DNA of 32,000 nucleotides from Chlamydiales bacterium (GCA_965261025.1 OZ253438.1:450001-482000), one strand, 5' to 3'; positions 6,346-22,802 are shown, counted from the first letter of the stretch. Notes: generated from the letters alone by a model not told the origin. A program made the numbers and translations.

Positions 6346-8121
6346 CTATATTTCCTTTGCTCTACTTACACTCCCATCCAAGTTCATTTCGAGAGGAAAC
6401 TTTTCAGAGGAAATATTTGTTCTAGGAAAAGTTAGCTCAAATTCAAAAAGACCTGTTTGTTTAAATCTATGCCTTCGAGACTCCGCGAGTTGTACAAAAC
6501 CATCGAAGCCCTTCTGGGTATTACAAATAGACTGTATCTTTTCAAAATAGGTTGTAATTCTATTTTCAAAAGCGCTTTCCCATCCATTATTTCCAGTAAG
6601 CCAGTTGGTCAAAAATTCATGTTCTGCAGATCCCTCTATTTTGGCATTCTTCGAGTTTTGAATATTTTCTACAAAACTCTTATCCAAAGACGCACCCTGA
6701 TCTCCTGCAGTAATCTCAAGAGGAACATAGTGTTCTAACTTTGAACGTTTTAATGAGTGTATTGGATTCTGAAAATCAACCATTAAAATACAAGCAGCTA
6801 ATCTCCTACTAATGATTTCTCGATGAATCATCTTATCTAATAAATCGATATCTTCAAAAGCAGGTTCAGGAACAAAAAAGGCAAAATGCGTATCACCAGG
6901 AATATTGACCGTTCCTGAACGAAGAGAAAAGTCAAACTTGGATAGGGCTTGCTCATAAATTGTACGACTGACTTGAGCCCGGTCAACAATAGGAATGAGT
7001 CCTGTTTTTTCCAAAGCAAAAAAATTAGCAAAAAAGGTAAAAGGAAGAGTAAGTTGAGCTTTTTGAGACTGAGAAGAATCGGGTGAGCTGATTAGATTCA
7101 AATTGGTAGTAGATAAGATTTGCCTTAGTAGATCATTAGGACGCGTTATTGTTTTTCCATCCGACCCTATGGCGTGATCGATTCGGCTTTCATTCCAGGC
7201 AGAAATTCCTGCTTTAAACTGGATTTCAAAGCGGTCTGCTTTTTTCCTATTTGTAAAGTACTCGGTACTAACAAAGGGATCATTTTCCGAAAAAATTTTT
7301 GAGAAAATTGTTGCCTCTGAACTATTCCAATGCTGCCAAGGAGAGCGAAGCTCCTTCATTACAGGTCCTCCATTAACGTGACCTGAAAAAGGACCCTTTG
7401 CTCGTGTCTTAGGATCTAGCGCATGAAAACCATTTCCAGACCAAATCCAAAAACCTTGTAACCGCTGATAAAAATTATAGGATCGGCTTTTGTTATCCCA
7501 GCTCATAAGCTGTAGAAACTGCCTTGAAGAATTAACACTAGTCCCTGTACTAACTAGAATGTCAAGACCAATACCGGACGTAGCCTTTGCATTTAAAACA
7601 AGACGGGCTGTCTGATCCACATTATCTGCATTTCTTCTCCAGGCAATTTGCCCGTTTTCAGCAATTAAAAAAACGTCAATTTCTTCAATTTCTTTTAATC
7701 TGTCCAGTTGACTTTTTATCTGCTCCATCGTGAGAGGAAAGAACCCTTTTTTTAAAAAAAGATTGGCGAAAGGATCGTTGATTGAGTTCTCAACTTCCTC
7801 CGAAGACATGGCTTTAGGCAAACCCTGATCCATGCCAACAATGAATTTATAAACCACCTTTCTGGAAGCAGAAGGATCAAAGCGAGTAGGCCCCATTGGC
7901 GCCTCTTCTTCGGGAGGTAATACCCCCAAATTCGAGAATTGGTGGATACTTGAAAAGTCTCTTCGTAAACTAGAAAAAGAGTTTCCTACTCTTGAGAGAA
8001 AATATCCAGAAATAACTCTCTCTTTTCCCTTAAGGCCTTGTGAAAAATAAGAGTCGCCGGATATCAATCTTCCAAAAGTAAAAGCTGGGATCAACCTAGA
8101 GGTAATTGCATTAGTTAACAT
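6346..8121 (-). CDS. Hypothetical soluble protein 'B' (591 aa), family not recognised
   Basis: Long ORF. The start is set at ATG 8121 because AAGGAG (8133-8128) lies 6 nt upstream. The ORF-track start at 8208 has no RBS and runs through an upstream hairpin. No TM helix or signal peptide is present. Distinctive strings are FYQRLQGFWIWSGNGFHALDPKTRAKGPFSGHVNGGPVMKELRSPWQHWNS and GDTHFAFFVPEPAFEDIDLL. Confidence 0.8.
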   Translation of the reverse strand: MLTNAITSRLIPAFTFGRLISGDSYFSQGLKGKERVISGYFLSRVGNSFSSLRRDFSSIHQFSNLGVLPPEEEAPMGPTRFDPSASRKVVYKFIVGMDQGLPKAMSSEEVENSINDPFANLFLKKGFFPLTMEQIKSQLDRLKEIEEIDVFLIAENGQIAWRRNADNVDQTARLVLNAKATSGIGLDILVSTGTSVNSSRQFLQLMSWDNKSRSYNFYQRLQGFWIWSGNGFHALDPKTRAKGPFSGHVNGGPVMKELRSPWQHWNSSEATIFSKIFSENDPFVSTEYFTNRKKADRFEIQFKAGISAWNESRIDHAIGSDGKTITRPNDLLRQILSTTNLNLISSPDSSQSQKAQLTLPFTFFANFFALEKTGLIPIVDRAQVSRTIYEQALSKFDFSLRSGTVNIPGDTHFAFFVPEPAFEDIDLLDKMIHREIISRRLAACILMVDFQNPIHSLKRSKLEHYVPLEITAGDQGASLDKSFVENIQNSKNAKIEGSAEHEFLTNWLTGNNGWESAFENRITTYFEKIQSICNTQKGFDGFVQLAESRRHRFKQTGLFEFELTFPRTNISSEKFPLEMNLDGSVSRAKEI

Positions 8122-8150
8122 CAAATTCTCCTTTGAATTCTTTTTGTGTT

Positions 8151-8193
8151 GGTAAAAAGCCCAGTTTTTCTTCATAAAGAAAAAATAACTGGG
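8151..8193 (-). terminator. Intercistronic hairpin plus T5 between genes A and B (attenuator, partial terminator or mRNA-stability element)
   Basis: The minus-strand RNA reads CCCAGUUAUUUUUUCUUUAUGAAGAAAAACUGGG. It forms a 7-bp base, one mismatch, then 6 more pairs including 2 G-U, around a 6-nt loop. CUUUUU follows directly. It ends only about 18 nt before the Shine-Dalgarno of gene B. Confidence 0.4.
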
Positions 8194-8307
8194 CACAATT
8201 AATAGCAACGGAACTTGTCCTGCAGCCTAAAAGCATGCCAAAAAGTCCCCTAACAGAATCTTTATAGCTCTCAAGCTCTGTATACAAAACAAAGCCTGAA
8301 ATAACTC

Positions 8308-9645
8308 CTAACTATTCTGATCAAAATTATCTAAACGAGTTGAAAATCTGTATGGCTGTTCCCCAGTGCTTTTTATTTCAGCTGCTTCATTTATAGGAGC
8401 AACACTTCTTCCCTGAAGGGTTACACATCCAAACTTAACTACATTAGACGGATCAAAATTCTGAGCAATCCCAGTTAGTTTAATCCGAACAAAATCTGCA
8501 ATTTGTCCTCCAAATTGAATTGGAGCTCCATTGATCTTAATATCACCTACTTTAAAACCCTTACTTTCAGGAACTTCAAAAATAGCCCGAACAGGACTCT
8601 CCTCATCTCCTCTTACAATTTTCCAGTAATCTCTAGAATCTGAGCCATCAGGTGTTTTCCATCCTTGAGGGGAAAAGGTATCAAAATAGAGTCCAACAGG
8701 ATCTTTAAGAGCCACCATCGCTCCTTGTCTTGTTAAAGCATTTACCTGAGCGCCAATGTGAGGATCACTATTTCTTTCCGGTTGACCATACCTACCACAC
8801 GAAATCAATTCTTGCTGGTTTTCTAAAATCCGTCCGTTAACTTCTCGAACCATACTTGATCCTGCCGCAAGCTCAATTTCTGCAAAAAGGCTATTATTTC
8901 TCTGAATCAGATGCATAGCCCCTCTTCCATTTGTGCCGCTATTCCACTTATTCCGAGGTTCATATTTCCCATTTTTAAATAGGTCATCTTGAACAACTTG
9001 ATCGCCAATAAACTCTTTGTAAATTTCAACTACCTTTTTTGGGTTCACTTCACCTAAAAAGTCCCAATACTCGGGTCCTTCACAAGTAAAATCAACTCTT
9101 GTAATTTTTCCAGTAAGATCTCTTGTTACACTCCATTCACAATACTCATCTTGAACATCTCTAGAACGATCTGCTACCTTCCATCTTACACTGTCGGTTG
9201 GGTATCTCTGTTTAATAATTCTTGGAAACCCAATCCAGGAAATAACTGCCTCTGCATAATCACTGGCTTTTTCTGTTGTTCGAGGATTAAAAACCTGAGG
9301 CCTTGGAGCATTATTTAATATCTTTCTTCCATCTGGAGTTTTATCAAACCCTTTTTTTACGACTTCGATAGCTTCGTTGATAAAATTTCGACTCCAGTTT
9401 TGCTTTTGTGCTTTTGTAAGATCATTCAAGTTCCCTGGAGGAGCAAACTCTTGAACAACTGTAGACATTTTTCTAAGCGAAGGGGGTGAGTTTAAATCCT
9501 TCAAGAAAGGAAAAAAAGTGGTAGCTACAGAATTTGTAGCATTTGTAACTACTTTTTCAGAAGAAGGCGAGGAATTTGATAGTCCACATGCTATGGATCT
9601 TGTAAAGCAACCTTTCCCTGCTGATGAAATTGTTGAAATAAGCAT
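8308..9645 (-). CDS. Hypothetical soluble protein 'A' (445 aa), family not recognised
   Basis: The ATG at 9645 is preceded by AAGGAG (9656-9651) at 5-nt spacing. No TM helix or Sec signal is present. Distinctive strings are QDEYCEWSV, FTCEGPEYWDF, HLIQRNNSLFAEIELAAG, CGRYGQPERNSDPHIG and KDPVGLYFD. Confidence 0.85.
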   Translation of the reverse strand: MLISTISSAGKGCFTRSIACGLSNSSPSSEKVVTNATNSVATTFFPFLKDLNSPPSLRKMSTVVQEFAPPGNLNDLTKAQKQNWSRNFINEAIEVVKKGFDKTPDGRKILNNAPRPQVFNPRTTEKASDYAEAVISWIGFPRIIKQRYPTDSVRWKVADRSRDVQDEYCEWSVTRDLTGKITRVDFTCEGPEYWDFLGEVNPKKVVEIYKEFIGDQVVQDDLFKNGKYEPRNKWNSGTNGRGAMHLIQRNNSLFAEIELAAGSSMVREVNGRILENQQELISCGRYGQPERNSDPHIGAQVNALTRQGAMVALKDPVGLYFDTFSPQGWKTPDGSDSRDYWKIVRGDEESPVRAIFEVPESKGFKVGDIKINGAPIQFGGQIADFVRIKLTGIAQNFDPSNVVKFGCVTLQGRSVAPINEAAEIKSTGEQPYRFSTRLDNFDQNS

Positions 9646-9907
9646 AAAAACTCCTTGAAAATTAATATGTTAAAAATCTCAAAAAAAATTTTTTACCTTA
9701 AGGTTTTTTTAAAAACCGGGGAGATTTTCATAAAAAAAAATATATAAATCAATAATTTTAACCTTATTTTAGGAAAAGCTTTTGATAAAAGGCTCCTTTT
9801 AGCAACAGACTCATATTGACTTGTCTGATAGCTACAAAATCCCCCTTGTCAGAAAGCAAAAGCTTCTATTACAATCCTTAAAATCTCACCTCAAAAGGGC
9901 CTATCTT

Positions 9908-11263
9908 ATGAAGAAGTTGAAAACTTTCCATATCCGGACTTATGGCTGTCAAATGAATGAGCTGGACACAGAGGTCATGGTAGGACAGCTTTCTAGGAGG
10001 GGGTTAAGCCTGGTAAAAGAAGAAACAGAGGCCGACCTGGTCATTTACAATACCTGCTCTATTCGAGATCTTGCAGAGAGAAAGGTCATGGGGAAGTTGG
10101 GTCAATTAGGCAGAGGGAAGAAAAAGTCTGTTATAGGGCTTACCGGTTGCATGGCTATGGCTAAAAAAGACCTCTTATTTCGTAAATTTCCTCATCTTGA
10201 TTTCATAATAGGAACAAATAATCTGACAGATTTAGATTCAGTGTTAGATGAAGTTCTTTATACAGAAAAACAGGTGATAAAAACAGAAGATCGTTTCGAG
10301 GAAAACTTGGACTATTTTGTAGCTAAAAGGCAGGATCCTTTAAAAGCTTTTGTTTCTATCATCCGAGGATGTGATAAGTTTTGCACCTATTGCGTTGTTC
10401 CCTACACTAGAGGAAAAGAGGTATCTAGACATTTTGAAGATATCGTAAAAGAGTGTCGAATGTTAGTAGATCAGGGGTATAAAGAGATTACCTTGCTAGG
10501 TCAAAATGTGAATAGTTATGGAAAAGACCATCCTGAATGGAATTGTCTTTTCCATGACCTCTTATACAAATTGGATAAAATCAATGGCTTAAAAAGGGTT
10601 CGCTTTATGACCTCTCACCCCATTGATATTACTAGGGAGCTAATGTATGCCCTAAGAGACCTTCCTTCTCTTTGTAATCTGGTCCATTTTCCGGTACAAG
10701 CAGGCTCTAATCGGATTCTTCGCAAGATGCACCGGATTTACACCAAAGAACAATACTTAGAAAAAGTACACCTTTTAAAGGAAATAGTTCCTGATGTTGC
10801 TTTAGGTACGGACATCATCGTAGGATTTCCTACTGAAACAGAAGAGGAGTTTTTACAAACCTACCAGCTATTTGAACAGGTAGGCTATTCTGTTGCCTTC
10901 ATGTATACTTATAGCCCTAGAAAAGGAACTCCTGCTATGAGATGGAAAGATGATATCCCCGAAGAAGTCAAAGAAGAGAGACTTCAAAGACTTATGGAAC
11001 TATATCATAGAGTAGGTAGTCAAGAGAGGAGCGCTTTTTTAGGAAAGGAAGTTGAAGTTTTGGTAGAAAGATTTAATCGAGATCAAAAAAGACTAAAGGG
11101 TCGCACTCGCTGCTGGAAAAAAGTGATCTTTGAAGGAAAAGAGGAGTGGATTGGTACTTTTCAGAAAGTGAAAATCCACAGCTTTCATCACCAGACTCTG
11201 CTAGGTTCTGTAGTACAAGCGGATTCTTGTCAGAAAAAAAAGCGAGCTTTTGCCTCAGCTTAG
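9908..11263 (+). CDS. miaB: tRNA-2-methylthio-N6-dimethylallyladenosine synthase MiaB (radical SAM methylthiotransferase)
   Basis: Begins MKKLKTFHIRTYGCQMNELD, the N-terminal UPF0004 domain. The radical-SAM cluster motif is GCDKFCTYCVVPYTRG, and a C-terminal TRAM region is present. The ATG at 9908 fits homologous N-termini better than the TTG at 9821. Confidence 0.92.
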   Translation: MKKLKTFHIRTYGCQMNELDTEVMVGQLSRRGLSLVKEETEADLVIYNTCSIRDLAERKVMGKLGQLGRGKKKSVIGLTGCMAMAKKDLLFRKFPHLDFIIGTNNLTDLDSVLDEVLYTEKQVIKTEDRFEENLDYFVAKRQDPLKAFVSIIRGCDKFCTYCVVPYTRGKEVSRHFEDIVKECRMLVDQGYKEITLLGQNVNSYGKDHPEWNCLFHDLLYKLDKINGLKRVRFMTSHPIDITRELMYALRDLPSLCNLVHFPVQAGSNRILRKMHRIYTKEQYLEKVHLLKEIVPDVALGTDIIVGFPTETEEEFLQTYQLFEQVGYSVAFMYTYSPRKGTPAMRWKDDIPEEVKEERLQRLMELYHRVGSQERSAFLGKEVEVLVERFNRDQKRLKGRTRCWKKVIFEGKEEWIGTFQKVKIHSFHHQTLLGSVVQADSCQKKKRAFASA

Positions 11264-12316
11264 CGCTTTCTTCTTCGGAAAAACCCATAGCCAAAAACCA
11301 AAGAGCAAAAAGGGAACGCTTAGAACCTGCCCCATATTCAAGAATCCCGAAAAGAACAGGCTCTGTTCCTCTTTGAAAAATTCAATAAGAAAGCGAAAAG
11401 AAAATAATAAGCAAAGAAGGGACCCTGCTGTTTTACCAGAAAAAACCCTCTTCTTGAAGAAGCATGAAAAAAGAAAGAACAGAAAGAAGTAAAAAAATGC
11501 CTCGTAAAGCTGAGCTGGATGCCTAGGGGCTGGTAAGGATCCATTTAGAGGATTTTCAAAAACAATAGCCCAAGGCACCGTAGTTACCGTACCCAATACC
11601 TCTTGATTAAAAAAATTGCCCAACCGGATCGATCCTGCAATAAAAAGAGAAGGCAATACCATAAGATCCAAAAGAACTTTCCAAGAAATTCCCTTTTCTT
11701 TCCGAATAAATACATACCCTGCAAGGAATACCCCCACTACAGCTCCATGACTTGCAAACCCTCTTCCTTGAAAAAGCTCCCAGGGGGCTTTTATGTAAGA
11801 AAAAAAGTTCTCATAGAATAAAAAATGACCCAGCTTTGCTCCTATGATAGTACCTAAAACTACGTAAAGAAGAAGCTTATCTACAAAACGGGTTGATCTC
11901 TTAGAAAGAGTTAACACATAAGGAGAAAGAAAAAGATCCAAAAGCTCTCTGTTTTTAACTAATAGCGGAAGAGAAAGCACTCCTTTTTTACCAAAAGGGA
12001 GTTTTTGAAAAAGGTTTTCCTGTTTTAGAAGGTGATTAAGCATCGCTAAAACAGTCGTGGCGTTTCCTAGCTCATCTTTGGCAAAATGCTTTTTTAAAAG
12101 AAGTAGGATCTCCTTTTTTTGCAAAAGATCCTCTTCTGTAAAATAAGGTTTTTCTCTAAAAAATCCCTTTATTCTTCGTAAGAAAATAAGATATCCTAGG
12201 AAAAAGCCAGAGCCAAAGAAAAACCCATACCACAATATGGGCCAACCCATGATAGGAAGTATAAAGAGTTCTTTGGCTGGATTCCAATGTAGAAAACTAA
12301 ACGGAACTATAAACAT
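11255..12316 (-). CDS. lgt: Prolipoprotein diacylglyceryl transferase Lgt, with an unusually long insertion after TM1
   Basis: Carries the Lgt signatures GSIRLGNFFNQEVLGTVTTVPWAIVF, RHPAQLYEAFF and the FASHGAVVG region. At 353 aa it is longer than the roughly 270-290 aa that is typical. Confidence 0.9.
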   Translation of the reverse strand: MFIVPFSFLHWNPAKELFILPIMGWPILWYGFFFGSGFFLGYLIFLRRIKGFFREKPYFTEEDLLQKKEILLLLKKHFAKDELGNATTVLAMLNHLLKQENLFQKLPFGKKGVLSLPLLVKNRELLDLFLSPYVLTLSKRSTRFVDKLLLYVVLGTIIGAKLGHFLFYENFFSYIKAPWELFQGRGFASHGAVVGVFLAGYVFIRKEKGISWKVLLDLMVLPSLFIAGSIRLGNFFNQEVLGTVTTVPWAIVFENPLNGSLPAPRHPAQLYEAFFYFFLFFLFSCFFKKRVFSGKTAGSLLCLLFSFRFLIEFFKEEQSLFFSGFLNMGQVLSVPFLLFGFWLWVFPKKKALS

Positions 12317-15420: not shown

Positions 15421-16224
15421 CTAAAAAGAAAAGGGAAGTAAATAGCTTATTATAAAAGAATTAACGTCCTTTGGCCCCCTTTTAGACAGAACTCGCCTTT
15501 CGTATTCTAGGCGAATCGTTCCCCAAACTCCCAAGCGATATCCATAACGAAACTTTACATCGAGGGCTTTTTGACGAACTCTTCCATATCCTTTAAATCT
15601 ATCAATATCGAGACGCGTTTGCTTACCATATCCGTGGATTCCCTCTACGAAAAAGGCCCATTTGTGCTCATCTTGTAGGTTCCCCTCCAGAGCAAAAACG
15701 GCTTTTACCCAGGGAGATCCTAAATTAGCTATTCCCACAGAAGCAAAAGCCCAAGTTCGAAATCGCCAAAACTGAAAAGAATCCCATTCTTTTCCCAAAG
15801 AAAAGTTCCCTTCAAACTCTATATTTCCATGATAAGCAGAGCTGATATCTCTTACACTTTTCTCCGAAACAAAGCGAGCATCTAATCCTGTTGCAAAACT
15901 AAAAGCATCTCCTACAATATCATCCATCCAAAGATATCTAGCCTGAAAAGCTGTGCTTCGAAAACTAAAGTCTTGTCTTGGAGTATGGGCAAACTCTAAA
16001 TCAGCATCTACACTCCATTCAGGAGAAAAAGAAAAATCTAAAGCAGTAAAGAGGAGTTGATCATTAGAAGGGCTTTTTAAAGGAACTAAAGCTCCCTGTA
16101 CTCTGCTATAGTGACTATAGCGATAGCCAGAGAGAAAATGAAACTCATAAACATCCCCAAACCAAGGCTGTTTTTCCAAGGCAGATAGAGAAAAAACAAG
16201 AAAAAAGCACGCTAAAAACTTCAT
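15421..16224 (-). CDS. Putative outer-membrane beta-barrel protein
   Basis: The Sec signal is [17 protein letters not shown]. Alternating hydrophobic beta-strand patterns occur (e.g. [21 protein letters not shown]). The protein ends in an aromatic ...YLLPFSF terminus typical of BamA substrates. Its ATG overlaps the trxB stop (ATGA at 16221-16224). Confidence 0.65.
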
Positions 16225-17168
16225 TCCCTACTAGCCAACCACCTTTCTGCATCAATGGCTGCCATGCAACCAGACCCTGCTGCAGTTATGGCTTGCCTGT
16301 ACTTAGCATCCTGCACGTCCCCCGCAGCAAAAACCCCTTCCACAGAAGTAGAAGTTGAGTCTGCCTTTACCTGAATATATCCTTTTTCTCTCAGTTCAAT
16401 TTGTCCCTGTAAAAAAGCGGTATTAGGAGTATGTCCTATGGCAAAAAATACACCACTTGCCACTTTTTCTTCTATCTTGTTTGTTTTGACATTTTTTACA
16501 ATAACCGACTCTACGACCTCTTTGCCTTTTACTTCTTCTAAAGTAGAATCCCAAATTACTTCTATCTTAGGATTCTTTACGGCTCTATCTATCATAATTT
16601 GAGAAGCTCTAAATGTGTTTCTTCTATGAACGATATATACTTTCTTTCCGTACTTTGTTAAGAAGATAGCCTCTTCCATAGCACTATCCCCTCCTCCTAT
16701 TACAAAAAGCTCTTTATCACGAAAAATAGGAGCAGCTCCATCACAGACAGCACAAGCAGTTACTCCTTTTTGCCAAAGCTCTCCTTCCCTAGTTCCTTTT
16801 ATATCCAACCGTTTTGCTTTAGCACCTGTAGCTATGATTATGGTCCTCGTTTTAAGGCTTTGTTTTTTAGAATAAACCACGAAAGGATAGGTCTTTAAAT
16901 CAACTGACAGAATATCTTCTAAAAAGGTTTTTGTTCCAAATTTCTCTGCTTGTTTTTTAAAAAGCCGCACTATTTCAGGTCCTTGAACCCCTTCCGGAAA
17001 ACCAGGATAGTTTTCCACATCCGTTGTTGTCATTAATTGCCCCCCTGCTGGCCCTTCTTGAAATCCTTCAAAAAGGATAGGAGATAAATTTGCTCTTGCT
17101 GCGTAGATAGCTGCTGTGTAGCCTGCTGGGCCAGACCCTATAATGATTAAATTCTGCTCTTCCTGCAT
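16221..17168 (-). CDS. trxB: Thioredoxin-disulfide reductase
   Basis: Motifs present: [18 protein letters not shown] (FAD binding), the redox-active [16 protein letters not shown] (NADPH binding) and GVFAAGDV. The ATG at 17168 gives 315 aa. The ORF-track start at 17273 would overlap proC by 43 nt. Confidence 0.95.
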
Positions 17169-17230
17169 CGATTGCCTCTTGATGCTAGCAGTATACAAAA
17201 ATCGCTTTTTAGCCACACCAGTTTCTGAAT

Positions 17231-18049
17231 TTAAGAAAATTGAGAATGAAAGGCTTTTGCCTTCCTTATACAAGCTTCCAATACTGAAAGCACTTCTTTT
17301 TCTACTCCCTTTTCTTGGAATACTTTCAAGCCCTCCTCAGTAGTTCCCCCTTTAACAGCGATTGCTTCGACTAGTTCTTCTAAGTTTTTTTTCTGTAGCA
17401 AAAGAGTCGAGGCTCCTTTAAAAGTTTGTGCGGCAATTTTTAGAGCCTTTTCTTTAGAAATACCCGCTTCTATTCCCTTTTTAGCAAAAGCTTGTATTAA
17501 CCTTAGTACATAAGCAGGTCCAGAGCCAGAGACCGCTGTTAAAATCTCTATAGCATCTTCTGGAACCTCCTCTATTTCCCCTAAAGCTCCAAAGAGTTTT
17601 TTTATATCCCCCTTCAAAAAAGAATCTATCCCTTCAGAAAAACAGAATAAATTCATTCCTTCAGCTACTTCTGAAGCAACATTGGGCATTACCCTAAGAA
17701 GGGAAACTTTCCCGAGCTTCTTTTGAAAATAAGAAAGAGGAGCCCCTGATACAATTGAAATGAATAGCTTAGAACCATAGTCCCCTTGGGGAATGCCTTG
17801 TAAAACCTCTTCCAAATCTTTTGGTCTTACGCAAAAAAAAATGAAAGTAGATCTTTCTACTAAACTCTGTAAAGAAGCCGCTGATATACGGTATTTCTGA
17901 GAAGTCTCCTTTTGTTTTTGCTTATTCTTCCTTAAGAAAAGGACTTGAGAAGATTTTACTAACTTACTTTTTTCCATAGTCTTATAAAGAATTTCTGCCA
18001 TATTTCCAAATCCTATAAAACCCAATCCTTTTTCTTCGCCTTTTTGCAT
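17231..18049 (-). CDS. proC: Pyrroline-5-carboxylate reductase
   Basis: Motifs present: [12 protein letters not shown] (Rossmann), SGSGPAYV and [11 protein letters not shown]. Length is 272 aa. Confidence 0.88.
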
Positions 18050-18248
18050 GTTCTTTGTCCTTTAAATTATTTTTAATAAGATACTTATATTTTTCTATAT
18101 CCTTGCTTGAAAAAAAAGAAATTCCTTTTTATCTAAAAAAAAATGAAGTAAAATTGCCCCAGGCAGTGCTAAATCTTAATAATAAAAGAAACAGTAATTA
18201 TTTTTATAAACAAAAACCTTTAAATTTTTCTTGAAGGGCTAGCTCGAA

Positions 18249-21026
18249 ATGCAAAGGATCTTGCGGAAAGTTTTTGGGATTTATCCAGGAGAGGGAGGGA
18301 CCACTTTTCGTTTTGCCAGGCTTTCCACCTATTGGGCTTTTTCTACTCTTTGTCTTGAAAACTTAGCAGATGGGTTATTCCTGCAAAAGGTAGGAGCGCA
18401 CGCTTTACCTAAGGTTTATCTGTCTACGGCCTTAATCTTAATTTTAACCTCTTCCGTCATAGTTTATGCTTTAAGAATCGTAAGTCCCTACCAAATTTTA
18501 CAGAAAGTCATTCTAGCAGGATTTTTCATTAGCGCCTCTTTTCTTTTTGTCCTATCTATGGAGAGCCCCCCTCCTTGTACCTGGTATATTCTCAAAATTT
18601 TCAGCCGCCTTTTCTTTTCTGTTTTCTTAGCTTGTGGTTGGACTTTCATAGACCAGTATCATGACCTACAAGAGGCTAAAAGGGTTTACTCTCTCTACAG
18701 CGCTGCCTATTTTTTAGGAATTATGTTATCAGGAGTAGTAATTAATCTTTTATTATCTAGATCAGGCTATATATTTCTTTATGGTATTGCCTGCTTTACT
18801 ATTTTACTCTCCTTTTTTGAAGTAAAAAATATTGTAGAAAAAGTCCCTGCTGTCCACGATGATACTATAGAGGGAGTATTCACAGGGGATCGAAATGGAA
18901 TCGCTGTTCTTATAGGGCTTGTAAAAAAATCTCCTTATACGCTTGTTCTATTAGCCCTCAGCCTTTTAGTACAATTTATCATGATTACCACTGAATTCAA
19001 CTACATGGAGATTTTCCAAAAAGCCTTTCAGGTAAAAAACCTGGATACAGCTACACATATCTCTGGATTCTTAGCAAAAAGTAGAGCTGCTATTTCTGCA
19101 GGAAATATTTTAATAGGAGCGTTTTTATTTTCTCCCTTCATGCGAAGGCTTGGACTAAATAATATCCTTCTGATTCCTCCCCTGTTTTTGGGATTTGTGT
19201 ATTGCGGTATGTTGATGCAAAACTCCCTTTTTATAGGGATCTTAGGTCTTATAGCAGTAGATGGAGTACTATTTACAATAGAGGATAATAGTTTCAATCT
19301 TTTGACTAAAGCAGTCCCCGCTAAGCTAAAGTCTAAGGTGCGTATTATTAATGACTCGTTTTTTGAGCCTATTGGGATGCTGATTTGTTCTGCCTTTTTA
19401 TTTTGTTTCGAAAAGCATAGTCGTCTTATGGGGCTTGCCTTTTCTTTTCTCTTTTTTACTTTAGCTATTTTACTAAGAAACCTCTATATAAAAGCTATTT
19501 TCATCAACCTAAAGGAAAACGCAATTCATTTTGAAAGAAAACTTCATAATTGGCTGGAAAAACTAGGGAAAAAAGAATCTAAAGAAATCAAAAAAGACCT
19601 GTTAAAATCTCTTTCTTCTTCTTCTGAAGAAGAAAGACTCTTGGGAGTAGAGGGGCTCCTGGCTTATAACGATCCTCTTTTGCTAAAGCGAATTCTACCT
19701 GCTTTGGAAACTCTTTCTTCTAAAAATAAAGAAGCTTTTCTGGCATTAATTGAAAAAAACCCCTTGAAAAATCATCCTTCTGTTTTAGAAAAAGTAAACA
19801 GCTGGGTAGAGGACTCTGAGCTTTTTGAAAAGGCTTACTTCTTTTTAGCAAAAAAAGGACTCCTTCACCCCGAAAAAGTAACCGATGATTTAGAATCAAA
19901 AAATCTTTTCTTAAGAGGAGCTGCCATTCTCACTTTAAAAAAGTCTCAAGCCTTACAAAATACAGAACAAGCTTCTTTAAACCGAACTATTGCTCAAAAA
20001 GAGTCTGATCTTCTCCTTTCCTCTGAAAATCCTTCTGAGGTACTTTTAGGGTTAAAAGTAGCAAAAGAAATCTTTGGCTCTGATGGCTGCTTAAAAATTT
20101 TCCCTCTCTTAAACCACAGTAATTTAGATATAAAAAAAGAAGCAAGCCTTGTACTTTCTGAAATCGTAGATAAATCCTGTATAGCATACCTTCCTAAGCT
20201 TATTGAGGAAATACAAGAGATAAAAGAAGGAGAAATTCGAAAAAACTGCCTAGTTGCCTTGGGGAAAATAGGGGATTCTACTGCCGTAAAAGAAATTTTA
20301 CAGGCCTCTGTTAATTTCCGTCCGTGTGAAAAAAGACTCGTAGAGCAGATCCTTTTACAAATGGGATTAAAAACGGTCCCTACTCTTTTATCTTTGGTAA
20401 GATCTAAAGAAATCCACTATACATGCCGTATCCAAGCAGCAAAGATTTTGGCCCATCTCTCTCTTCCTCAATTAAGAGCTCATTTGGATGAAATTATCTC
20501 AATAGAAAAAGAAAAAGCGTATTTTTATTTTTTCCACGCCCATACCATACAGAAAACCCATCCAGAATATGATCTGGTTCTCTTAGAAGAGACGCTGCAA
20601 AGTCGTTTTCAAGCCTCATTTGATTTTATTATTCATCTCTTGGGAGCAGTAGGTTCTATCGAAGATTCAGAACTATTAGTTCACTCTTTACATAGCAAAA
20701 ACGAAAAAGTGCACAGTAACGCCATAGAAACCTTAGAAAAAACTTGTGATTTTCAGATTTTTTCCTGGCTTTTACCTTTGATAGAAAAAATTCCCTTAGA
20801 AGAAAAACTTTCCGCCTTTCACAAGAACTACCAAGACTATAGCCCTCTTTCCTTACAAGAGCTTTTATACACTCTATATGAATCTCCTTCTCTCTCAGAT
20901 AAAATTACTGCAGCGCATTTAAAAGCTACTTTAAAAGTTCCTAATTGGAAAGAAACCTTGAGGCAGCAAATGAAAACAAATGAAGAAGCCTTTTACCAAT
21001 TTGCCTATGAGTTATTAGAAAAATGA
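18249..21026 (+). CDS. Polytopic membrane transporter-like domain (MFS/nucleotide-transporter-like, tentative) fused to a C-terminal HEAT/PBS-lyase repeat domain
   Basis: About 430 aa contain at least 10 hydrophobic helices, followed by about 490 aa of soluble alpha-repeat. HEAT-type units include EERLLGVEGLLAYNDPLLLKRILPAL, IRKNCLVALGKIGDSTAVKEILQA and NEKVHSNAIETLEKT. Total length is 925 aa. Confidence 0.75.
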   Translation: MQRILRKVFGIYPGEGGTTFRFARLSTYWAFSTLCLENLADGLFLQKVGAHALPKVYLSTALILILTSSVIVYALRIVSPYQILQKVILAGFFISASFLFVLSMESPPPCTWYILKIFSRLFFSVFLACGWTFIDQYHDLQEAKRVYSLYSAAYFLGIMLSGVVINLLLSRSGYIFLYGIACFTILLSFFEVKNIVEKVPAVHDDTIEGVFTGDRNGIAVLIGLVKKSPYTLVLLALSLLVQFIMITTEFNYMEIFQKAFQVKNLDTATHISGFLAKSRAAISAGNILIGAFLFSPFMRRLGLNNILLIPPLFLGFVYCGMLMQNSLFIGILGLIAVDGVLFTIEDNSFNLLTKAVPAKLKSKVRIINDSFFEPIGMLICSAFLFCFEKHSRLMGLAFSFLFFTLAILLRNLYIKAIFINLKENAIHFERKLHNWLEKLGKKESKEIKKDLLKSLSSSSEEERLLGVEGLLAYNDPLLLKRILPALETLSSKNKEAFLALIEKNPLKNHPSVLEKVNSWVEDSELFEKAYFFLAKKGLLHPEKVTDDLESKNLFLRGAAILTLKKSQALQNTEQASLNRTIAQKESDLLLSSENPSEVLLGLKVAKEIFGSDGCLKIFPLLNHSNLDIKKEASLVLSEIVDKSCIAYLPKLIEEIQEIKEGEIRKNCLVALGKIGDSTAVKEILQASVNFRPCEKRLVEQILLQMGLKTVPTLLSLVRSKEIHYTCRIQAAKILAHLSLPQLRAHLDEIISIEKEKAYFYFFHAHTIQKTHPEYDLVLLEETLQSRFQASFDFIIHLLGAVGSIEDSELLVHSLHSKNEKVHSNAIETLEKTCDFQIFSWLLPLIEKIPLEEKLSAFHKNYQDYSPLSLQELLYTLYESPSLSDKITAAHLKATLKVPNWKETLRQQMKTNEEAFYQFAYELLEK

Positions 21027-21457
21027 AAAACTTAAGTTTAATTGAAAAAACGTTTTTCCTAAAAAAAACCAAACTTTTTGAAGGACTGGATTTAGACTTT
21101 TTACTTGCTATTTCTGAAAAAATTAGCCAAGACGTTTACGATAGGAAAGAGAAAGTATTTGGAATCAACCAGGTAGCCAATCGCCTTTACTTCATAGCAA
21201 AAGGTTCTGTAACCTTATTTGATGAAAAGAAAAATTTGATAAAAAAACTAGAGGAAAACGAATTTTTTGGAGATGAAGGAATCTTCAATGAAAAACCGAG
21301 ATCCTATCAGGCTATTTGTGAAGAAGATAGCCTTATTTTAACCCTTTCACGCACTAACTTTTTACATATCATCTCAGAGTGTCCCTCGGTTGCTATCACT
21401 TTACTGCAGTGTTATTCACAAGCCTTTCCCTTAAGGTTTAAAAAAGATGAAAATTAA
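21023..21457 (+). CDS. Stand-alone cyclic-nucleotide-binding (CAP/cNMP) domain protein
   Basis: ATGA overlap with the upstream gene. The sequence LFEGLDLDFLLAISEK...RLYFIAKGSVTLF...EFFGDEGIFNEKPRSYQAICEEDSLILTLSRTNFLHII follows the cNMP-binding beta-roll pattern (FGE...PRSA...A). Confidence 0.82.
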   Translation: MKNLSLIEKTFFLKKTKLFEGLDLDFLLAISEKISQDVYDRKEKVFGINQVANRLYFIAKGSVTLFDEKKNLIKKLEENEFFGDEGIFNEKPRSYQAICEEDSLILTLSRTNFLHIISECPSVAITLLQCYSQAFPLRFKKDEN

Positions 21458-22760
21458 GTCCCACCTTTTCCTGCTTTTATTTCCCGTTATCCTTTTTAGT
21501 CATTTATTGATTATAGCACTTCTTAGTTATCACTGGAGAAAAGAGCTTTTGGAAGGGTTTGAAAAAAAACTAAAAAACTCCGCTGTGTATGTCTCAGAGT
21601 TTTTTGAAAAAAATCCTTCTTTAGAAAAAGAACTTCCCCTTTCTAGGGAGGATTATCCTCATCCTCTGGACTTTTTAAAAAAACAAAAAGTGGAAAAAAT
21701 CTACCTCTTAGAAGCAGAAAAACTCCCCTCTTACGGAATCTTTTCCTCCAGGGAGAAACTAAAAGAAGAACCCTTTTTTACTTTTTTTTCTGAAAAAGAA
21801 GAAAGAAAGGCAAGAGCCCTGGCTCCCTTGAATCAGGAAAGTGATCCTCTTTTATATATAGCTTTGGAAGCTTCTTTGGAAGAGATCTCAGAAAAAATGG
21901 CTGTAAACTCTACTTTGATCTTTTTTTGTGTTGGAAGCTCCCTTTTTCTTCTAGCTATTTTTATCTATTTTTTCGGGAAAAAGGTAGCAGATCCTATCCA
22001 AAAATTAAATAGTTCTGCTTTGACTATAGCGGCAGGGCAATATGGAGAGAAGATCTCTTTAAAAGGCCCCTTAGAAATCTCTGAACTAGCCAATACCCTA
22101 AATGTTATGAGTGAATGTCTCAATGAAAATATGAACCGACTCAAGGAAAATTCTCTACAAAAAGAAAAATGGCATGGAGAATACGAATGCTCTTTACTAC
22201 TGCAAAAACTCATGCTAGAAAAAGCAACAAAGGGGTGCTCTTCTGATACTGTGGTAGTAGAGGCTCTATCCTTTTATTCCGATGAACCAAAAGGATTTGT
22301 GCTAGACATTCTTCAAAGAGAGAAAAAATTATATATTCAAATAGCAGAGGCAAAACAAGCAGGATTTCGAGAAATTTATGATCTTTTAACCCAATATAAG
22401 CTAGCAGAAGAAAATAGCTTTACCAATTTTCTTCGCTCAAAGATAGAGATATCTCTAGAAGAGCCCTTTATCCCTACTACTTTTTTTCATCACCCTATTC
22501 TCTGGTCTCGTAAATACCAAAAAACTATAGAGAAGAGGGAAAAATATAAGCTAAACCCGGGAGACTATTTATTCCTGGGAAATATGACCTTGCTTCGTTT
22601 GAAAAATGATCTGTCTGATGTAATAGAACAGGTATTAAAACACTTTTCAGAAGAGGGGTTTGAAACTGTTGTTAAAATGATGAAGAAGAAGATCTCCTTT
22701 TGGATAAGAAAAGAAGGTCTTGAAGAGGATATTCATCTAATCTGTTTACAATGGCTATAG
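21447..22760 (+). CDS. Two-TM sensor protein with a HAMP linker and a PP2C/SpoIIE-like (RsbU-type) C-terminal domain that appears catalytically degenerate
   Basis: The gene overlaps the upstream gene by 11 nt. TM1 is HLFLLLFPVILFSHLLIIALL, followed by a loop of about 130 aa, then TM2 LIFFCVGSSLFLLAIFIYFF. The HAMP linker reads PIQKLNSSALTIAAGQYGEKISLKGPLEISELANTLNVMSECLN. The C-terminal roughly 200 aa align by eye with SpoIIE-type PP2C blocks. Confidence 0.7.
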   Translation: MKIKSHLFLLLFPVILFSHLLIIALLSYHWRKELLEGFEKKLKNSAVYVSEFFEKNPSLEKELPLSREDYPHPLDFLKKQKVEKIYLLEAEKLPSYGIFSSREKLKEEPFFTFFSEKEERKARALAPLNQESDPLLYIALEASLEEISEKMAVNSTLIFFCVGSSLFLLAIFIYFFGKKVADPIQKLNSSALTIAAGQYGEKISLKGPLEISELANTLNVMSECLNENMNRLKENSLQKEKWHGEYECSLLLQKLMLEKATKGCSSDTVVVEALSFYSDEPKGFVLDILQREKKLYIQIAEAKQAGFREIYDLLTQYKLAEENSFTNFLRSKIEISLEEPFIPTTFFHHPILWSRKYQKTIEKREKYKLNPGDYLFLGNMTLLRLKNDLSDVIEQVLKHFSEEGFETVVKMMKKKISFWIRKEGLEEDIHLICLQWL

Positions 22761-22768
22761 AAAAAATC

Positions 22769-22794
22769 GGACAGAAAAAGACATTTTTTCTGCC
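22769..22794. terminator. Weak AT-rich hairpin between the convergent HAMP gene and acpP (possible bidirectional terminator)
   Basis: CAGAAAAA-GACAT-TTTTTCTG forms an 8-bp stem at 22772-22792. It lies in the 42-nt gap between the stop at 22760 and the acpP stop at 22803. The stem is low in GC. Confidence 0.3.
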
Positions 22795-22802
22795 CTAGAA
22801 AG

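Follow-up and report, generated by a model that had tools for sequence, protein, structure and literature searches.

An NTT-HEAT operon of Chlamydiales with a stand-alone cyclic-nucleotide-binding protein and a HAMP/PP2C-like membrane sensor

The NTT-HEAT protein family, together with NTT-HEAT-cNBD fusions that also have a domain for binding cyclic nucleotides (cNBD), was described by Major et al. 2017 (Genome Biol Evol 9:480; PMC5381601), and the passages of that paper dealing with these proteins give them no function. The same passages place a cNBD gene immediately downstream of NTT-HEAT as 'part of the same operon', suggest cyclic AMP (cAMP) as a possible tuner of NTT activity, and list, among the Chlamydiae, Chlamydiaceae and Estrella only as having NTT-HEAT. 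The family was taken up again in a preprint of 2019, but only as part of a phylogenetic tree. In the literature searched, no paper linking a HAMP or PP2C-like gene to NTT-HEAT was found, and the passages of PMC5381601 on HEAT, cyclic nucleotide and Chlamydiae make no mention of a HAMP/PP2C partner, those two words not having been searched in it. Here we describe an NTT-HEAT locus in a 32,000-nucleotide stretch of DNA from a Chlamydiales bacterium (GCA_965261025.1, OZ253438.1:450001-482000), hereafter the window, in whose coordinates positions are given.

The locus consists of three plus-strand genes: gene 1 (18249-21026), encoding an NTT-HEAT protein of 925 aa; gene 2 (21023-21457), encoding a stand-alone protein of 144 aa predicted to bind cyclic nucleotide monophosphates (cNMP); and gene 3 (21447-22760), encoding a membrane sensor of 437 aa. 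A first-pass annotation had proposed a translationally coupled operon whose products work together, and all of its coordinates for the operon were correct. As read from the sequence, the stop codon of gene 1 and the start codon of gene 2 share the ATGA at 21023-21026, and genes 2 and 3 overlap by 11 nt (21447-21457), which implies that translation is coupled at both junctions. Our results indicate that gene order and overlaps recur in dozens of independent genomes, more than chance would give, and that the chlamydial operon looks like a larger cassette in reduced form. On this genomic context we propose that the three proteins form one membrane-bound, cyclic-nucleotide-responsive transporter/signalling complex, a reading for which we consider the case evenly poised.

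The three proteins of the operon

Gene 1 encodes a member of the NTT-HEAT family of Major et al. 2017. The fusion of a membrane domain to HEAT repeats that had been read from the sequence was borne out by Pfam matches above the cut-offs to MFS_1 (aa 86-364, 41.8 bits, cut-off 33.4) and HEAT_2 (aa 619-684, 38.1 bits), and by an AlphaFold2 (AF2) model built from 114 orthologs (predicted local distance difference test score, pLDDT, 86.6), in which a membrane helix bundle extends to about residue 412 and is followed by a low-confidence or disordered linker (425-436) and by helical repeats (441-924) made of about 30 short helices with high pLDDT. The polytopic membrane domain (18249-19493, aa 1 to ~415) was assigned to the MFS fold by Foldseek and hydropathy, the latter giving about 11-12 hydrophobic segments. 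When the model was compared with 350,542 PDB chains using Foldseek, AtNTT1 ranked first (9j3m_A, E 1.2e-6, TM-score 0.67 on the target) and Chlamydia pneumoniae NTT1 second (9j3n_A, E 3.7e-6), followed by generic MFS transporters and ARM/HEAT proteins, which places NTTs, of all folds with known structure, closest to the modelled protein. Searching the PDB sequences with the family profile gave a single transporter match, again 9j3n_A, which was weak (E 0.012).

More than 100 chlamydial orthologs of gene 1 align over the full length with 48-84% identity. Those of environmental chlamydiae variously match MFS_1, TLC (PF03219) and HEAT_2, TLC scoring 23-26 bits (cut-off 21) in many orthologs and fusion relatives, and some are annotated as 'Npt1/Npt2 family nucleotide transporter' or 'ATP/ADP translocase'. 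The cytoplasmic tail (19569-21023, aa ~441-925, ~485 aa) is a solenoid of the HEAT/PBS-lyase type according to the HEAT_2 match, the AF2 model and the PDB searches, in which AlphaRep/HEAT proteins matched it. A role of gene 1 as a bilin lyase, raised by matches to NblB (NCBIfam) and PBS-lyase models, was considered and rejected, as these reflect generic HEAT repeats and reach 20 bits against a cut-off of 300.

The product of gene 2 consists of a cyclic-nucleotide-binding fold and nothing else, as had been predicted: cNMP_binding (PF00027, 55.4 bits, cut-off 27.5) is its sole domain. Among PDB sequences it matches PKG, PKA-R and CRP with E-values of 1e-10 to 1e-6, and the domains of CNG/HCN channels align as well. 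Its phosphate-binding cassette (PBC), FFGDEGIFNEKPRSY in the window protein, follows in 76 chlamydial orthologs the consensus F82-G83-[D/E]84-E85-x-[L/I]-F88-N-x-x-P92-R93-[S/A]-Y95, with G83 and R93 invariant, Asp or Glu at position 84 in 76 of 76, and P92 in 61 of 76. The spacing from the glycine to the arginine is 10 residues, as in PKA and PKG. Judging from these residues, the ligand pocket looks functional, and its ligand would be a cyclic nucleotide.

For gene 3, 120 full-length homologs were collected, all annotated merely as 'HAMP domain-containing'. An AF2 model built from them (pLDDT 88.1) comprises a first transmembrane (TM) helix, a loop of mixed alpha/beta structure, a second TM helix continuous with the HAMP linker, a helix of about 50 residues, and a C-terminal alpha/beta domain. 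The two TM helices, the loop of roughly 130 aa and the HAMP linker described by the first-pass annotation were all recovered: the hydrophobic helices lie at residues 7-25 and 157-175, and the 131-aa loop between them (21522-21914, aa 26-156) is extracytoplasmic and bears a weak resemblance to Cache/PDC (extracytoplasmic PAS) domains. This resemblance comes from weak Foldseek matches to the extracellular domains of WalK, CitA and KinD (E 0.03-0.1, probability 0.8-1.0) and from sub-threshold Pfam matches among the 120 homologs, to MCP-like_PDC_1 in 50, dCache_1 in 35 and sCache_3_3 in 30. The HAMP linker (21972-22130, aa ~176-228) follows TM2 directly, matches Pfam HAMP (PF00672) at residues 176-223 with 31.7 bits (cut-off 25), and is matched in all 120 family members.

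The C-terminal domain of gene 3 (22233-22757, aa ~263-437), which comes after a long coiled helix (aa 209-262), has a PP2C/SpoIIE-like fold. Foldseek aligned it with P. aeruginosa RssB (3f79), Rv1364c (3ke6), SpoIIE (5mqh/5ucg) and SiaA (6k4e), with E-values of 3e-6 to 2e-4, and also with PstP, all at probability 1.0; the E-values of all PP2C-type matches span 3e-6 to 7e-3, with TM-scores of 0.37-0.53 on the target. The domain has no Pfam or PDB sequence match, and Pfam SpoIIE (PF07228) appears below threshold in 16 of the 120 homologs (best E 0.0047). Since PDB sequence searches with gene 3 and with the 120-member profile returned HAMP-containing proteins alone and no PP2C, the PP2C assignment is drawn from the fold and from a weak profile alignment.

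That alignment was made by local hhalign (-mact 0.01) of the gene 3 C-terminal region with a small canonical SpoIIE-type alignment, the global mode giving a meaningless 3 columns. It is weak (E 1.5e-3, probability 17%) while being collinear and bringing all landmark motifs into line. In it, EYECAmLLQ stands opposite dlkiAtdiQ, P-R-G283-L284-L-L-D287 opposite v-G-G-D-l-y-D, A-E301-A-E-E-E-G306 opposite G-D-V-S-G-K-G, G372-D373-x-F-F-L-F-N379-Q380-G381 opposite G-D-y-i-y-i-y-T-D-G, and E427-D428-I-H430 opposite D-D-I-T. By this weak alignment, the position of the GGD aspartate is occupied by Leu, Phe or Ile in 117 of 120 family members (L284 in the window protein) and that of the TDG aspartate by Gln in 81, Glu in 11 and Arg in 11 (Met380 in the window protein), whereas the DxSGxG and DDxT positions hold E301 and D428, both invariant; D287 and D373 are nearly invariant. 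Two of the four PP2C metal ligands, the GGD and TDG aspartates, thus appear to be replaced, and gene 3 probably encodes a pseudophosphatase. The PP2C-like character assigned by the first-pass annotation therefore stands for the fold, whereas the active site seems degenerate, and we regard the protein as a Cache-like, HAMP and degenerate PP2C protein that is most likely a pseudophosphatase.

Distribution of the operon in chlamydiae and of the cassette beyond

To describe the distribution of the operon in Chlamydiota, one genome per GTDB species was scanned, which gave 80 chlamydial loci, and these were searched with hidden Markov models (HMMs) for genes 1, 2 and 3; a single gene 1 alignment spanning the fusion class as well proved too heterogeneous for the genome scan, and the chlamydial and fusion-class scans were therefore kept separate. 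Gene 2 lay directly after gene 1 in all 73 chlamydial loci with room for it, and gene 3 directly after gene 2 in 62 of 71 (those with at least 1.2 kb downstream). The co-conservation that the operon proposal called for is thus complete for genes 1 and 2, while gene 3 is not universal. The 62 gene 3 copies comprised 36 long ones, 22 short ones without the periplasmic loop and 4 cut by contig ends. At the junction of genes 1 and 2 a 4-nt overlap was found in 66 of 76 loci, and at that of genes 2 and 3 the overlap was 4 nt in 55 of 64 and 11 nt, as in the window, in 5 of 64. In a reverse search from three gene 3 homologs, genes 1 and 2 adjoined each time; around these three loci the chlamydial genomes were rearranged, with the trio intact. 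Carriers of the trio include Waddlia and Parachlamydia (L068).

At the nine loci where gene 3 did not follow, a divergent, hidden gene 3 was considered and rejected, the next gene being acpP or encoding an SSF symporter, an AAA/DUF4143 ATPase or a DUF3604 protein, or having no match. In C. pecorum, the Chlamydiaceae representative examined, a gene for a 925-aa NTT-HEAT protein is followed after a 21-nt gap by one for a 144-aa cNBD protein, directly beside a convergent acpP, so the pair of membrane/HEAT and cNMP genes that the first-pass annotation had placed next to acpP in Chlamydiaceae, naming the CT234/CT235 region, was found in this arrangement. Going by this representative, Chlamydiaceae have kept the two-gene core alone at this locus. 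In the literature searched, CT234 was found only in a genome-wide association list, and nothing useful on CT235.

Some chlamydial loci showed irregularities. Gene 1 is split into 2-4 adjacent open reading frames (ORFs) in different frames in two chlamydial metagenome-assembled genomes (MAGs) with long-read-style assemblies (L086, 7950-10795; L087, 7986-10792), representing either pseudogenes or uncorrected indel errors. Short ORFs at L045 13141-13335 and L082 12197-12394 match just the last ~65 residues of the gene 3 profile; the former lies ~900 bp downstream of an apparently complete gene 3 and may be a duplicated remnant, and the latter is directly adjacent to gene 3, consistent with a frameshift. 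In L001 (GCA_040961015.1), a gene for a 643-aa fusion of a methyltransferase and an ATP-grasp domain (Dala_Dala_lig_C; 9624-11555) and a Y1 transposase gene lie between gene 3 and acpP, the trio being intact despite its rearranged surroundings.

Outside the chlamydiae, an exhaustive representative search with gene 1 yielded 1730 relatives. Among those of 1002-1117 aa, seven of the nine scanned were single polypeptides with NTT/MFS, HEAT and cNMP_binding domains in the order of gene 1 and then gene 2, which agrees both with the fusions mentioned in the first-pass annotation and with those in PMC5381601; one fusion relative is annotated from an Omnitrophota MAG. In five fusion loci, the fusion gene is followed by a gene that we call HAMP-1 (707-793 aa), a gene for a small protein (120-137 aa) and a second HAMP gene, HAMP-2 (456-499 aa), with stop/start overlaps common between them. 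The small protein has a cNBD fold (15-48 bits against the gene 2 HMM), shares 26% identity with gene 2, and is without the PBC arginine. In hhalign, the gene 3 profile aligned with HAMP-2 over its full length (410 columns, E 3.6e-24, probability 99.6%); its alignment with HAMP-1 starts at the sensor domain (probability 99.3%).

A metagenome scan for the fusion class gave 78 further non-chlamydial loci, encoding NTT-HEAT with or without a cNBD. The order NTT-HEAT, HAMP-1, small cNBD-like protein, HAMP-2 was present in 32 of the 36 loci whose downstream sequence measured 5.6 kb or more, and in two more of these 36 a single ORF combined HAMP-1 with the small protein, HAMP-2 coming next. Of 54 loci with room for it, 51 had HAMP-1 as the gene immediately after NTT-HEAT. 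In three loci (L133, L142, L145) a single ORF encodes TM-Cache-TM-HAMP together with the small cNBD-like domain, a second Rosetta-stone link, which joins the sensor to the cNBD module. A canonical sensor-HAMP-PP2C gene was found in 31 of the 78 loci, in 25 of them divergent and immediately upstream; one such gene is L097 15233-16855. These canonical proteins retain the PP2C motifs (GGD in 31/31, TDG in 31/31, DxxGxG in 26/31), whereas DxxGxG was found in 0 of 50 HAMP-1 and 0 of 44 HAMP-2 proteins. One locus, L006, carries genes for STAS and HATPase_c_2 (RsbV/RsbW-like) proteins upstream.

Co-linearity, conserved 4-nt overlaps and the two kinds of Rosetta-stone fusion strengthen the earlier suggestion that the three proteins work together. 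The module predates the chlamydiae and the cassette appears ancestral, and the chlamydial operon looks like a reduced form of this larger and widely distributed arrangement.

Further features recur around these genes. The start of gene 3, MKI[KR]T/S..L.LL.P (window 21447-21490), is nearly invariant in chlamydiae even though it shares its sequence with the 3' end of the gene before it, and HAMP-2 of distant high-GC bacteria starts likewise (MKIRTQNLL; L006 12016-12050). Beside non-chlamydial NTT-HEAT genes, genes for an Orn/DAP/Arg decarboxylase and one or two MTS-type methyltransferases recur (L006 3030-5967; L090 5561-6757 and 14084-16225; L092 4042-6954); they are not found in chlamydial loci and may hint at a link to polyamines or other small molecules. 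Proteins of 228-232 aa combining a Popeye domain (POPDC1-3) with cNMP_binding are encoded near the cassette in L090 (1476-2162, minus strand) and, in L091 (6602-7300, plus strand), inside it, between HAMP-1 and the small protein, where they represent a third type of cNBD protein.

A proposed membrane complex and its alternatives

From this context we infer a physical complex, an inner-membrane regulatory assembly that would be built around the NTT-type MFS protein. Gene 1 would act as transporter or receptor, with its HEAT solenoid as a cytoplasmic docking platform. Gene 2 would bind a cNMP through its intact PBC, dock on the HEAT tail and gate or report on the transporter, the docking being modelled on the relatives in which a cNBD is covalently fused there. 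A dimer of gene 3 beside the transporter would provide a second membrane input or relay through its TM helices into HAMP, the signal being periplasmic where the Cache-like loop is present (~60% of species) and intramembrane where it is absent. Because two of the four metal ligands are apparently lost, the PP2C fold would bind a partner, gene 2 and/or the HEAT tail, rather than dephosphorylate it. Signalling may run either way, with sensors that gate the transporter or with a transporter that acts as receptor for the sensors; the many loop-less gene 3 proteins and the true PP2C and STAS/RsbW-like genes of the wider cassette keep in play the reading of a trigger transporter that feeds into partner switching. 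As to the source of the ligand, host-derived cAMP is one possibility.

Several observations weigh against this proposal. All evidence for the complex is genomic context. The scan of window ORFs, which reached to 23 kb, turned up no cyclase, in line with what the first-pass annotation had noted, and no adenylate cyclase is known to be annotated in Chlamydiaceae. On the choice between TLC and another MFS type for gene 1, Pfam gave MFS_1 and no TLC match (PF03219) at E<=1 for the window protein, whereas the best Foldseek matches were NTT structures; other MFS folds have TM-scores to gene 1 similar to those of NTTs. Since MFS_1 is the only transporter model that passes and these TM-scores are similar, nucleotide transport is only a candidate function of gene 1. 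At least one NTT relative, NTT4 of S. negevensis, failed to transport nucleotides (PMC5381601, in the passages on these proteins). Of the 71 environmental chlamydial loci, 9 have no gene 3 after gene 2, and C. pecorum has none at its gene 1-gene 2 locus, so genes 1 and 2 can function without it. Orthology of gene 2 is ambiguous in that HMM scores overlap for the fused cNBDs and the stand-alone small protein: gene 2 has the E-C-P motif of the small protein, which is not in the fused cNBDs, and keeps the PBC arginine, which the small protein is without. Finally, the alignment of gene 3 with SpoIIE-type phosphatases is weak, backed just by the similar fold and the pattern of residue conservation, and the invariant E301 and D428 leave room for residual metal binding or catalysis.

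A reversed direction of signalling survives best among the alternatives, together with a different role for gene 2. In the former, which we consider unlikely, the NTT-HEAT protein would be a trigger transporter that senses host nucleotide or flux, and gene 3, with gene 2 as adaptor, would relay this to cytoplasmic targets; no more probable is the specific version in which the target is an Rsb network controlling sigma-66 availability and the pseudo-PP2C domain serves as decoy or scaffold for phospho-RsbV-like proteins. BceS-type kinases sense through their transporter, and the 22 of 62 chlamydial gene 3 proteins without a periplasmic loop have as plausible input an intramembrane or cytoplasmic signal alone. 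The canonical sensor-HAMP-PP2C gene adjacent to the cassette in 31 of 78 loci, the STAS and HATPase_c_2 genes of L006, and the RsbU/CT589 pair of active phosphatase and pseudo-phosphatase in Chlamydia (PMC4552016) point in the same direction. Yet no STAS or RsbW genes were seen near the chlamydial loci inspected, C. pecorum has genes 1 and 2 without gene 3 at its locus, and the tightest links, the fusions and overlaps, are inside the trio and not to Rsb genes.

It is likewise improbable, to about the same degree, that gene 2 senses a ligand other than cAMP or cGMP, such as a non-cyclic nucleotide, a dinucleotide or a metabolite, or that it is purely a protein-protein adaptor, which on this view the degenerate small homologs outside the chlamydiae would have to be. 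Other ligands are indeed recognised by folds of the cNBD type in CooA and FNR-type proteins, the non-chlamydial stand-alone homologs are strictly kept in the cassette although they are without the PBC arginine, and the ORFs scanned in the window include no cyclase. Against this, the strong constraint on G83, D/E84, P92 and R93 across the 76 gene 2 orthologs is difficult to account for unless the protein has a phosphate-ribose ligand.

We consider it distinctly less probable that gene 3 is an active, divergent PP2C of the RsbU or SiaA kind, acting on gene 2, on the HEAT tail or on an anti-anti-sigma factor, so that a phospho-relay would control the transporter. The PP2C fold itself, the location of E301 and D428 (invariant) and of D287 and D373 (nearly so) at canonical acidic positions or close to them, and the tolerance of CT259 for Asp-to-Glu changes at metal sites (PMC4552016) would fit such activity, but the GGD and TDG aspartates are replaced according to the weak alignment, no SpoIIE or PP2C Pfam model matches at threshold, the operon is without a kinase gene, and canonical PP2C paralogs of the same cassette retain the motifs that HAMP-1 and HAMP-2 do not. 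Least probable of all is that a transporter, a cNMP binder with some other target and an unrelated envelope sensor act independently and are co-transcribed only through their history or for the sake of expression, since, although some lineages have lost gene 3 and retained genes 1 and 2, order and overlaps are held across Chlamydiota and distant high-GC lineages, including the Omnitrophota MAG, two independent kinds of domain fusion exist, and the trio stays intact while its chlamydial surroundings rearrange.

Returning to the single complex of the three proteins, a broader and rather doubtful extension can be offered, in which the trio would be the minimal survivor of a widespread membrane signalling machine that uses the NTT fold as receptor or gated importer and, in chlamydiae, would tie the physiology of the bacterium to host nucleotide or cAMP status and to envelope signals. 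With the same tentativeness, that machine would consist of NTT-HEAT with or without a cNBD, two Cache-HAMP-pseudoPP2C sensors, a small adaptor of cNBD fold and, often, a true sensor-PP2C phosphatase. Kaul and Wenman are said to have reported in 1986 effects of cAMP on chlamydial development, from reticulate body (RB) to elementary body (EB), and a cAMP-binding activity; in the literature searched, no relevant paper on a Chlamydia cAMP receptor protein was found. If it is true, the machine could supply the identity of the chlamydial cAMP-binding activity of the 1980s and of the RB-to-EB effect.

Chlamydial energy parasitism relies centrally on NTT-type transporters. Conservation of the NTT-HEAT paralog extends through the whole phylum and takes in pathogens of humans; beyond the neighbouring cNBD gene, the family now has a concrete candidate interaction map, with a cNMP-binding protein whose ligand site is intact, a HAMP sensor with a probably dead PP2C fold and, outside the chlamydiae, two paralogous sensors and a true PP2C. 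If the complex is real, it would be a rare case in which a second messenger directly controls a nucleotide-transporter fold. It would further document a pseudo-PP2C domain serving as signalling output and offer a candidate connection from host nucleotides or cAMP to the chlamydial developmental cycle. The trio proteins are absent from hosts, which bears on drug-target arguments already made for NTTs.

Surroundings of the operon and comparison with known systems

The window has a GC content of ~36% and the operon one of 35.5%. Locally, minus-strand trxB and proC are followed by genes 1, 2 and 3 on the plus strand, by a convergent acpP-fabG-fabD-fabH, and then by recR-bamA-ompH-lpxD; the fab, recR, bamA, ompH and lpxD names were given solely by synteny with annotated loci. 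Between proC and gene 1 lies a divergent, AT-rich gap of 199 nt (18050-18248, 23.6% GC), as first described. It is presumed to be the promoter region: the only plus-strand sigma-70-like site in the scanned region is a weak 9/12 match at 18154-18183, and because the count of such sites is below the shuffle expectation, the promoter is put forward as a presumption.

The hairpin noted earlier in the short downstream gap was also recovered. This gap (22761-22802, 42 nt) separates gene 3 from the convergent acpP and holds at 22769-22795 an 11-bp stem (GGACAGAAAAA/TTTTTTCTGCC) with 4 GC pairs and A and T runs either side. The T-run is on the minus strand, the strand called by the terminator scan, and on the plus strand the fold has -10.2 kcal/mol with a modest z of only -1.9; the hairpin is likely a bidirectional terminator common to gene 3 and acpP. 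Terminator-like hairpins numbered 13 in the scanned region against 5.0 +/- 2.3 in shuffles. Several cluster on both strands at 21300-21830, in gene 2 and the 5' part of gene 3, and may reflect coding sequence rich in A and T runs; given their coding location and presence on both strands, those within genes 2 and 3 were dismissed as evidence.

Further upstream, two adjacent minus-strand ORFs of 620 aa (6346-8208) and 445 aa (8308-9645) have no Pfam match at E<=1e-4 and may be lineage-specific chlamydial proteins. The longest trxB-like ORF (16221-17273, minus strand) starts at TTG and overlaps the 3' end of proC (17231-18049, minus strand) by 43 nt. Because its Pyr_redox_2 match begins only at residue 41, the true start is probably an internal Met (MQEEQN...), and the overlap is probably an artefact of listing the longest ORF.

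With respect to known systems, the organisation of the operon, with a small ligand-binder and a membrane sensor encoded beside a transporter, invites comparison with GlnK-AmtB, BceS-BceAB, DcuS-DctA and UhpC, where a transporter is encoded together with a small ligand-binder, or with a membrane sensor whose extracellular domain is slight or missing, that regulates it or senses through it. This is a functional analogy drawn from gene organisation, with neither homology nor common domains shared with GlnK-AmtB or the trigger transporters.

For the output domain, RssB of E. coli already offers an example of a PP2C fold that is used in protein binding and not in catalysis. The C-terminal (pseudo-)PP2C domain of RssB was the second-best Foldseek match of gene 3 overall and the best of PP2C type (3f79, E 2.6e-6); RssB is a soluble response-regulator adaptor for ClpXP without HAMP, membrane anchor or transporter context, whereas gene 3 has all of these. 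Gene 3 is like RsbU (CT588) and SiaA in combining a putative periplasmic sensor, TM helices, HAMP and a PP2C-type fold, and like the CT589 pseudo-phosphatase it appears, by the weak alignment, to be without residues for metal coordination. It differs from RsbU and SiaA in being shorter, in having no SpoIIE/PP2C similarity at Pfam thresholds, and in being encoded with a transporter and a cNBD protein and not with Rsb or Sia partners.

Gene 1 shares with the canonical NTT/TLC ATP/ADP translocases (Npt1/Npt2, AtNTT1) the MFS fold, these giving its best Foldseek E-values of the PDB, and differs from them in its ~15% identity, the missing Pfam TLC match and the additional 485-aa HEAT tail. Closest of all is the family of Major et al.: as far as the relevant passages of that paper describe it, gene 1 has the same architecture, gene 2 is the reported downstream cNBD gene, and the three-domain fusions were recovered again, so that the pairing of genes 1 and 2 and these fusions are already published. 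Relative to those passages, the present analysis finds the family in genomes of at least 80 chlamydial species, and adds to it a third gene that is conserved and a cassette of greater size. The conserved partner encoded by gene 3, its pseudo-PP2C nature and its loss at the C. pecorum locus, together with the sensor-cNBD fusion and the four-to-five-gene cassette outside the phylum, appear to be new.

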